From a virus (lineage: Duplodnaviria; Heunggongvirae; Uroviricota; Caudoviricetes): a stretch of 6,638 bases of DNA. Location: IMG/VR virus record IMGVR_UViG_2534681998_000020; one strand, written 5' to 3'. The number at the start of each line of letters is the position of its first letter. Position 1 is the stretch's first letter. Below, in pieces: positions 3,001 to 6,000 of this stretch. Position numbers: made by a program.

Positions 3001-6000
3001 ATTTATCAGCGACGGAAACGGCCTGGAAGCTGTGGGAACTCATGGGGGTGGTTTATTCGAACCGCTGGATCCAGAAGAACGGGGCCGCACCTTCGAAGCT
3101 CTGGATTGCACAGATTGGCGCGATGACTGAGCAGCAAATCCGGCAGGTCTGCCGCCAGTGCATGGACCGCTGCCGGGCGGGTGAAACATGGCCTCCGGAC
3201 TTGGCTGAGTTTGTGGCACTGATTTCGAAAAGCGGAGCCAATCCATTCGGTCTGACGGTGGATGCTGTGATGGAGGAGTACCGCCGCTGGCGCAATGAGT
3301 CCTGGCGATACGACGGAAGTGATAAGTACCCGTGGTCTCAGCCTGTGCTGTATCACATTTGCCTCGAGATGCGTTCAAAGGGGATTGAGCGCCAGATGAC
3401 CGAAGGGGAATTAAAACGGCTTGCAGAACGGCAACTGACGAAATGGGCAAAGCATGTTAGTAACGGCCTGAGCGTTCCGCCAGTCCGGCGACAACTGGCG
3501 GCCCCCAAACGCCCGTCGGGGCCAACGCCAATTGAGTTGCTGAAACAGGAATATGAACGCCGGAAAGCGGCTGGTTTTGTTTGAGTTGAGAAGTGATTTT
3601 TTACCGGGAGGAAATTTATGGAGACTGTTTTTGACGCACTGAAAGCGATGGGAAAAGCCACGTCGGTATAGCTGGCTGCGCGACTTGATATCAGTCGTGA
3701 AGAAGTACTGAACGAGCTGTGGGAACTGAAAAAGGCTGGCTTCGTTGATAAAAGCGTATACACCTGGCGTGTGGCTGATAACAACGTTCAGCAGGAACAG
3801 CCAGCGCCAGAAGAAACCACCACGGCAACAGAAGCGAAAATCTCAGAGTGCGATTTAACCGCGACGATTGAACAACGCGGACCACAAACGGCGGATGAAC
3901 TGGCTACGCTGTTCGGTACAACATCCCGCAAAGTTGCTTCAACGCTGGCAATGGCAATCAGCAAAGGTCGTCTGATTCGCGTAAACCAGAACGGTAAAAT
4001 TCGTTACTGCATACCAGGTGATAATTTACCAGCAGAGCCGAAAGTTGAATCGGTAGCGGAAACCGATGGTAAAGCCTTTCCTCAGCCAGCCGGTGTTGCG
4101 TTACCGGTACAGAAAGATGCAACACAGGAAGATATTAAAACAGAAACTGTGGCGGACATTGTGCAGTCGCTGCCATCGTTTACTGCAACGCGAGAAGATG
4201 ATTTGATTTTGCCATCGCTGCATATGGCAAATCGCGAACTGCGTAGGGCGAAGAATCATGTCCAGAAGTGGGAGCGAGTCTGCGCCGCGCTGCGGGAGCT
4301 GAACAAGCACCGGGATATGGTTGCCGGGATTTGTCGGAAGTCCGGGCAATGAGCGGATGGTGCAGGCCTGAAATCATGATACTAACAATGAAGGTAAAAT
4401 GCATCGGCAGTCTGATTGGTCGTAGTGAGGCGGCGGTCAGGATGAAAGCCCAGGTTAAGGGAATAAGCCTGATTCTGCGGGGTGATTTTCACCAGTCAAC
4501 AAAATATCCGTAGCGCGATAACGGTCAAAAATTATGGCGCTGACACTTTTGTGCCACTGGAGATGACTGTACCTAAGTTCAGGGGAGAAGAACACGTCCG
4601 GTGGGATGGTCGGGCCAGATTTAAAGGGCAGGTCATGGCTCCAGCCTGTACGCTGGCAATGGAGGCTGCCTGGCGGGAAATTGATATGGGAACCACGCCA
4701 CTCAGGGATTTACTGCCGGTCCAGAGAATAAATTCCTGTTACGGTTACACCACTGTGATCTTGCAAGTGCAGGAAAGTAGGTCTACACGGTAACGCGAGT
4801 GCGTGTAACTTTTGATGTCATTCCCGTAGAAACACCGGACAAACTTTCGCTGACAGGTCATGCAGAAGGTATAAATCTGCAGATTATGGACAATTACGGA
4901 TATCCGGCAAGAGCCGGAAAAAGCATGCCGCCTCTAATTCTCAGTGGAAGATGGACTTGATTATACTCATTGCATTGTCAGAAATAGTTATCCATTAAAG
5001 GCTGGCTATTCCAAACAGGATGTTGATTACAAAAATGTAATCAACATGTAAGGTTTATACTCTTCAATATGCGTATAATTTTCCTTATTTTGTTGACTTT
5101 AAATAACAAGCTATGCACGAGGTAAAGTCGGATAAGTTTATCTGGATGTAATATATATTATTTGTAGTGTTTATAACTTTATTTCATGATAACCAATAAA
5201 AGGAGTTTTTTATGAGGAACATAATGGCAGGTTTTTTAATATTCCTGTCTTCTGCTGCTTATGCTGATATCAATCTGTATGGTCCTGGTGGCCCGCATAC
5301 AGCCTTGCTTGATGCAGCCAAACTTTATGCCGAAAAAACAGGTATTATAGTGAACGTTCATTACGGCCCACAGAACAAATGGAATGAAGATGCCAAAAAA
5401 AATGCAGATATCTTGTTTGGCGCATCAGAACAATCTGCTCTGGCTATCATTCGGGACCATAAAGACAGCTTCAGTGAAAAAGATATTCAGCCTCTTTATC
5501 TGCGAAAAAGTATTTTACTGGTAAAGAAAGGTAATCCTAAAAATATCCGGAGTATTGACGACCTGACCAGACCTGGGATTGGCGTAATTGTTAATGATGG
5601 TGGTGGTACCAGTAATACATCAGGCACTGGCGTCTGGGAAGATATTGCCGGACGTAAAGGGAATATAGAAACTGTCGCCGCAATCCGAAAAAATATTATT
5701 TTATATGCGCCCAATAGCGGAACTGCACGTAAGGCTCTTGAGAATCAGCCTGGAGCAGATGTCTGGATAACCTGGGCTGACTGGGCAGCCAGTAATCCAG
5801 AAATTGGTGATGTCGTGGAAATAGCGCCAGACTACGTGATATGGCGTGATATGAACATTACAGTACGTCAGGATGCAAATGATGAAACCCGTCGATTTGC
5901 AGAATGGCTACAAACCGATGAAGCGGCGCCTGCATTCAAAAAATATGGCTGGACCAGGAAAGGCACTTGACATCCTCGTCCTTCAGGACGTGGATTCTTT

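Follow-up and report, generated by a model that had tools for sequence, protein, structure and literature searches.

We report that a 6,638-nt stretch of Caudoviricetes DNA (IMG/VR record IMGVR_UViG_2534681998_000020; the whole of this stretch is called the window) carries at 5212..5970 (+ strand), as judged by sequence identity, the known gene paa, which is the same gene as adfO and as z2053 of strain EDL933 (OI-57/CP-933O). The gene has already been described, and the finding is an ordinary one. It lies in its usual place, an OI-57/PPompW-type lambdoid prophage, with the hok-type gene ckf following directly downstream, and it is a known accessory colonization gene of attaching-effacing, Shiga-toxigenic, and enterotoxigenic Escherichia coli. 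An earlier note on this DNA had treated the gene as an unknown whose role for a prophage is not obvious, a view that must be given up because adherence and colonization phenotypes of paa/adfO have been published. We take the identity of paa, its place in the prophage, and an accessory role of the Paa protein in the periplasm, where it would bind an anionic ligand, to be together the best explanation of the data, with a probability of about 0.9.

Of 5426 complete E. coli genomes, 577 contain DNA annotated as paa that is 99.9% identical to the 1451 bases at 4800-6250 of the window; the gene is labeled "paa: AcfC family adhesin Paa" there, and RefSeq uses the same coordinates for the coding sequence (CDS). 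The same identity (99.9%) is seen with eleven PPompW prophage records from Shiga-toxigenic E. coli (STEC), which are annotated [quoted passage not shown]. The protein encoded in the window shows 100% identity to the cluster "AcfC family adhesin Paa" (616 member sequences), and it matches PHROG 11834 with E = 4e-176. According to a review of the O islands, adfO (z2053) of OI-57 resembles Paa of porcine enteropathogenic E. coli (EPEC), an adfO mutant shows much weaker adherence to HeLa cells and a reduced secretion of several proteins, and adfO is invariably accompanied by ckf (z2054), which encodes a phage-associated cell-killing factor (PMC8565820). In bovine gut contents, paa/acfC is transcribed by EDL933, with a higher level in rectal content (PMC8524897). 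In addition, porcine enterotoxigenic E. coli (ETEC) and STEC are routinely typed for paa, which is associated with the severity of lesions in piglets.

The paa CDS is an ATG-started open reading frame (ORF) of 252 codons plus the stop codon. A Shine-Dalgarno sequence read from the DNA, AAGGAG (5200..5205, +), lies 6 nt before the ATG, and an intrinsic-terminator-like hairpin with a U-run (5969..6004, +) is located directly 3' of the stop codon; the hairpin itself (5969-5997) is followed by UUCUUUUU and has a folding energy (dG) of -13.3 kcal/mol (z = -2.8 versus shuffled sequences). The strong ribosome-binding site and the terminator that the earlier note assigned to the gene are thus both present. 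Two start codons are in use in the databases, since RefSeq places the start at 5212 (252 aa) and the PPompW records LC5678xx, including LC567822, place it at the second ATG, 5224 (248 aa). A purine-rich stretch precedes each of the two candidate ATGs. The N termini of close homologues (MRTAIAGF, MRSTIAGF, and MKKTLAGV) match the first ATG, and 5212 is therefore the conserved start of paa, not 5224. Upstream of the gene lies an AT-rich region (5008..5211, +; ~26-30% GC) that is presumed to hold the promoter and regulatory signals, and the plasmid copies described below carry the same stretch. A consensus scan of 5055-5211 for a sigma-70 promoter finds no strong site, and not more candidate sites than in shuffled sequences.

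The N terminus of Paa, MRNIMAGFLIFLSSAAYA with DINLYG following the predicted cleavage point, shows on inspection a basic residue, a hydrophobic core, and an A-x-A cleavage motif. The signal peptide comprises residues 1-18, and the mature protein of ~25.8 kDa has the type II periplasmic-binding-protein fold. Paa contains no cysteine (0 in the sequence), no lipobox, and no membrane anchor, and because it lacks cysteine it is not a lipoprotein. Paa is accordingly best described as a predicted classical substrate of Sec and signal peptidase I, and export has been shown experimentally for the homologue AcfC only. The Pfam model SBP_bac_11 matches Paa with E = 5.5e-34 over residues 20-247 of the protein and positions 1-226 of the 227 in the profile. 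With a full-length ORF, this domain, and a canonical signal sequence, the gene appears to encode a complete signal-peptide-bearing periplasmic binding protein, as the earlier note had proposed.

Among solved structures, the Paa sequence matches Campylobacter jejuni PEB3 (E = 1.2e-81) and Vibrio cholerae AcfC (E = 3.5e-81), and both alignments span residues 11/16-248 of Paa, essentially the full mature length. An AlphaFold2 model of Paa was built from 57 homologues and has a mean predicted local distance difference test score (pLDDT) of 91.8. In Foldseek comparisons using the template-modeling score (TM; TMq for the query), this model matches AcfC (4jb7) with a TMq of 0.90, a root-mean-square deviation of 1.1 Å, and 52% identity, and PEB3 (2hxw and 3fj7) with a TMq of 0.87-0.88 and 52-53% identity. 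The next structural tier consists of ModA and of sulfate-, ferric-, and sugar-phosphate-binding proteins, with TM of 0.55-0.72 and 10-19% identity.

The most conserved stretches of the family include the loop S134-N-T-S-G-T-G140 (codons at 5611..5631, +), which is presumed to be the anion- or ligand-binding loop in the cleft between the two lobes. Among the 57 homologues, S134, T136, S137, G138, T139, and G140 are invariant and N135 is nearly invariant; in the N-terminal YGPGGPH motif, G24, P25, and G26 are invariant, and Y23, G27, P28, and H29 are found in at least 90%. The Paa loop S134-G140 aligns with S136-G142 of PEB3, so that T136/S137 correspond to T138/S139 of PEB3, whose mutation reportedly abolishes ligand binding. 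Among crystal structures of the family, the PEB3 entry 3fj7 contains L-phospholactate and the AcfC entry 4jb7 contains D-aspartate. PEB3 has been described as a binder or transport protein for 3-phosphoglycerate and related phosphates, and recombinant AcfC in an enzyme-linked immunosorbent assay showed stronger binding to heparin, chondroitin sulfate, and mucin than to hyaluronic acid. By analogy with these relatives, the ligand of Paa is most likely a small anionic compound.

The earlier note had called the protein ModA-like and of the oxyanion-binding type, which is correct for the fold and incorrect for the family. The Foldseek match between ModA and the Paa model has a TM of 0.72, while the identity is 16-17% and the TIGR01256 modA model reaches 18.3 bits where 62.5 are required. 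Scores of 11.7-17.7 bits are obtained with the remaining ModA equivalog models (cut-offs of 253-470), and the sulfate/thiosulfate-binding models score 21.5 versus 155.5 (TIGR00971), 22.6 versus 288 (NF008022), and 19 versus 308 (NF008106). These weak matches are confined to ~40-50 residues around the S134-G140 loop. An identity as ModA, TupA/WtpA, or a sulfate-binding protein was rejected on these grounds, as the curated models are far below their cut-offs and the structural likeness is at the level of the fold only.

The window contains neither a permease gene nor an ATPase gene, and neither is found within 6 kb on either side of paa in two annotated near-identical records, so the gene is a lone one, as the earlier note had observed. 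The neighborhoods of eight homologues were annotated with Pfam (Edwardsiella, Enterobacter, V. cholerae, Campylobacter, Francisella, Aeromonas, Salmonella IncFII plasmids, and Helicobacter), and an operon with a permease or an ATPase is found in none of the eight. At the Edwardsiella and Enterobacter loci, the nearby ATP-binding cassette (ABC) system already includes its own binding protein, and either 0.7-1 kb or a gene on the opposite strand lies between it and the paa homologue. A further survey covered 50 loci from distinct species, with 42-87% identity to Paa, and an adjacent co-oriented ABC ATPase occurs at none of them (0/50). An ABC ATPase is detectable within 6 kb at 8 of the 50 loci, and the sole adjacent case (L038) is convergent. 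Permeases at the 50 loci were sought by phmmer with three permease queries together with a count of hydrophobic segments, a test less sensitive than that for the ATPase. The neighbors are otherwise very varied across the surveyed loci. The whole AcfC/PEB3 family thus shares the absence of an adjacent transporter, which is not an accident of the window copy; for homologues encoded beside cognate transporter genes, an arrangement that the earlier note had considered, the count of adjacent co-oriented ABC ATPases is 0 at the 8 and 0 at the 50 loci.

A different kind of neighbor is seen in the most distant full-length members of the family (42-45% identity; alpha-, beta-, and gammaproteobacteria), which adjoin a membrane protein of the PF03601 (Cons_hypoth698) family. 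This neighbor was identified by Pfam at L060 (8094-9179) and L065 (4729-5823), and it is presumed from the size and position of the ORF at L062 (7941-9185) and L066 (4668-5762). At L065 and L066, the PF03601-type gene ends ~55 nt upstream of the family member on the same strand. In that distant branch, the PF03601 protein is a possible membrane partner outside the ABC class.

The paa gene occupies the AT-richest part of the window. The region 4800-6000 has a GC content of 40.9%, compared with 49.5% for 1-4799 and 53.4% for 6001-6638, and the intergenic stretch 5055-5211 upstream of paa has 25.5%. The paa CDS has 43.9% GC overall and 34.8% at third codon positions (GC3), whereas GC3 is 42-66% in the other CDSs of the window. 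The composition check thus confirms the AT-rich island of the earlier note. A decayed fimbrial-subunit gene (4518-5051, +) lies directly upstream of paa, and its 3' part is already AT-rich. Rac-type phages have ydaW in common with the window up to ~4320, beyond which their content differs (lygF and other genes), so that the region 3' of ydaW can be regarded as a variable slot.

IncF plasmids of porcine and bovine E. coli carry a copy of paa at 86-89% DNA identity, and one of these plasmids also carries the heat-stable enterotoxin STa. The homology between the plasmids and the window spans only 5008/5018-6030, which comprises ~200 bp upstream, the CDS, and the terminator, and no transporter is found near the plasmid copies. 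The start of the shared segment (5008-5018) falls inside the last 35-45 nt of the fimbrial pseudogene, and at most these nucleotides of the pseudogene move together with paa. An ancestral link between the fimbrial pseudogene and paa was tried and rejected, as tblastx of 4400-5211 against 15 homologous loci finds only the start of the module at ~5008, in two E. coli plasmids. The shared boundaries point to a self-contained module of ~1 kb (5008/5018-6030) that moves between prophages and IncF plasmids. The ratio of nonsynonymous to synonymous substitution rates (dN/dS) of paa is 0.06-0.13 against the plasmid, Escherichia albertii, and Salmonella copies, and Paa is therefore under purifying selection. 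With its deviant composition, a Shine-Dalgarno sequence and terminator of its own, its position in a variable slot, and a module shared with IncF plasmids, the gene can fairly be called a horizontally acquired moron, as the earlier note did. The AcfC/PEB3 family is repeatedly tied to mobile colonization loci.

Homologues with 55-84% identity are also present on other mobile elements, namely Salmonella IncFII plasmids (L012-L014) and an Aeromonas island (L011), where the neighbors include AraC-type regulators, an insertion sequence (IS) element, ParDE or Hok toxin-antitoxin genes, a FaeA-type fimbrial regulator, and an AlpA-type phage regulator. Just past the paa terminator, a second GC-rich hairpin, AUGCCGC-GCCA-GCGGCAU (6007-6030, +; ~-16 kcal/mol, not better than shuffled sequences), sits on the right edge of the module shared with the plasmids. 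Its 24 nt recur inverted in pSTEC388_3 (L016 3856-3879), ~1.1 kb upstream of the paa copy. This hairpin could be an element like a repetitive extragenic palindrome (REP) or one from a recombination junction.

As to the mode of action, we propose that Paa, which has the two-lobed type II fold of the AcfC/PEB3 binding proteins, would be exported by Sec and cleaved after AYA(18). In the cleft between the lobes, the SNTSGTG loop would bind a small anionic ligand, which may be phosphorylated, sulfated, or carboxylated. Having no transporter of its own, Paa would act from the periplasm or the cell envelope as a ligand-binding accessory protein, and through host-encoded partners it would alter adherence, protein secretion, and gut colonization. 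We infer that this mode of action is indirect; our preferred reading is that the adhesion phenotype is largely indirect, and a classical outer-membrane adhesin is not favored.

Several points weigh against this proposal. To our knowledge, no partner protein of Paa has been reported in E. coli, and we know of no ligand shown for Paa itself, the known ligands coming from PEB3 and AcfC. The alignment places Thr133 of Paa and a Val of AcfC at the position of K135 in PEB3, of which a K135E mutant was made and crystallized (3fir), and the specificity may therefore differ among the three proteins. The consensus scan shows no clear sigma-70 promoter in 5055-5211, and the promoter of paa is presumed to be its own only from the upstream region that travels with the gene. 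Moreover, the original work on Paa (Batisson et al. 2003) is reported to present Paa as an adhesin in early attaching-effacing adhesion, and a direct surface role is therefore possible.

The indirect role could take a more specific form, which we put forward tentatively and hold to be rather improbable. Paa may be a mobile "plug-in" periplasmic sensor and not an adhesin, capturing a host-derived anionic compound and docking on an E. coli chemoreceptor, a sensor kinase, or a component of secretion control encoded on the chromosome. This would parallel AcfC with its adjacent chemoreceptor AcfB in V. cholerae. If so, prophages and plasmids would rewire where in the gut a lysogen settles.

A direct adhesin is the strongest competing explanation, and we regard it as possible but doubtful. 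Here, a fraction of Paa on the surface or in the medium would bind sulfated or phosphorylated host glycans, such as mucin and heparan sulfate, and tether the bacteria. This was the original interpretation, and both the name and the annotation of the gene are those of an adhesin. Both paa and adfO mutants adhere less, and the link of paa with the severity of piglet lesions and the in vitro binding of heparin, chondroitin sulfate, and mucin by AcfC are consistent with it. However, the Paa sequence has no outer-membrane anchor, lipobox, or autotransporter or usher features, and its homologues are periplasmic, AcfC by fractionation and PEB3 as a described periplasmic glycoprotein. The acfC mutant has a chemotaxis defect and no adhesion defect, and the adhesion of E. 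coli expressing AcfC is unchanged. The loss of secretion of other proteins in the adfO mutant fits an indirect effect as well.

The view that Paa scavenges nutrients, delivering an anionic metabolite such as 3-phosphoglycerate to a host transporter for a growth advantage in the gut, is unlikely. It draws on the description of PEB3 as a transport protein for 3-phosphoglycerate and similar phosphates, on the conserved ligand loop, and on the fact that the nearest structural neighbors outside the family are binding proteins of ABC transporters. A co-oriented adjacent ABC ATPase or permease is nevertheless found at none of the 8 + 50 loci, the nearby ABC systems of Edwardsiella and Enterobacter are complete with their own binding protein, and no E. 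coli importer without its binding protein was identified. Finally, that the gene is a decayed fragment of an ABC operon, functionless in the lysogen, is extremely improbable and was rejected on the neighborhood survey and the dN/dS: the upstream fimbrial pseudogene does show debris in the region, but the ORF has its full length and its product aligns with homologues of known structure from one end to the other, the gene evolves under purifying selection and is 99.9% conserved in the 577 genomes, it is transcribed in bovine gut contents and has reported mutant phenotypes, and the whole family is without an adjacent transporter.

The surroundings of paa in the window are those of the annotated near-identical records, with the same gene order, dicA-dicC-ydaT-O-P-DUF1627-fim'-paa-hok. 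The left side holds a DicA/DicC-type switch and YdaT, followed by the replication genes. Upstream of paa are an O-like replication protein with a DnaT domain (2015-3130), a lambda-P-like protein (2919-3584), and DUF1627/ydaW (3771-4352). With O, P, and ydaW on the left and hok/sok on the right, paa lies between the replication genes and the hok locus, as the earlier note had placed it. The fimbrial pseudogene is spread over three frames (ORFs 4482-4793, 4799-4960, and 4944-5051) and is labeled "fimbrial protein, frameshifted; internal stop" in RefSeq; a Pfam search recognizes none of the three ORF fragments. Downstream, a complete hok/sok-type toxin-antitoxin locus (ckf/hokD; 6159..6461, +) is a neighbor outside the paa module. 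It includes an Rfam sok match (6159-6308, 103.9 bits) and a Hok/Gef ORF (6249-6461; HOK_GEF E = 1.7e-21), in which the Hok core begins from an MKQQKAM start at ~6306. The Hok/Gef ORF at 6249-6461 is ckf, the reported constant companion of adfO.

The O-like gene is intact in the window, while an IS1203 insertion splits its homologue in E. coli O157:H7 PV15-279 (L001 1979-4331). The window therefore comes from a less decayed copy of such a prophage.

As a discovery, the paa gene of this window matters little, since it is a named virulence marker for which STEC, EPEC, and porcine ETEC are routinely typed, and structures are available for two homologues. The family-wide lack of a transporter and the discrete ~1-kb module that moves between prophages and IncF plasmids are possibly useful. 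In addition, the label "adhesin" fits poorly with the sequence of Paa and with what is known of its homologues, and the question of adhesin or sensor bears on a widely used marker.

Compared with known systems, the window gene shows no difference of substance from Paa/AdfO of E. coli, with which it shares the protein, the prophage context, and the downstream hok-type ckf. ModA and Sbp/CysP share with Paa the type II fold and the Pfam SBP_bac_11 domain and are its nearest structural neighbors outside the AcfC/PEB3 family (TM 0.66-0.72), but their identity to Paa is 12-19%, and modBC or cysTWA are not adjacent to paa. PEB3 has the same fold and the same ligand loop as Paa; unlike Paa, it is chromosomally encoded and N-glycosylated, and its sequon DFNVS aligns to DSFSE in Paa, where the sequon is absent. 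AcfC resembles Paa in being an exported protein of ~250 aa with the SNTSGT loop, encoded on a mobile pathogenicity element without an adjacent transporter. The reported phenotype of acfC, however, is in chemotaxis to mucin and in gut distribution and not in adhesion, and acfC lies in an operon of the toxin-coregulated pilus (TCP) island right after the chemoreceptor gene acfB, whereas no comparable partner is encoded close to paa. In V. cholerae ATCC 14035 (L042), acfB (4073-5953) ends 5 nt before acfC (5959-6729), and AcfB has dCache_1, HAMP, and MCP signaling domains. The position of acfB directly before acfC agrees with the operon and the chemotaxis model of Valiente et al. and supports AcfB and AcfC as a pair of chemoreceptor and binding protein in V. 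cholerae.

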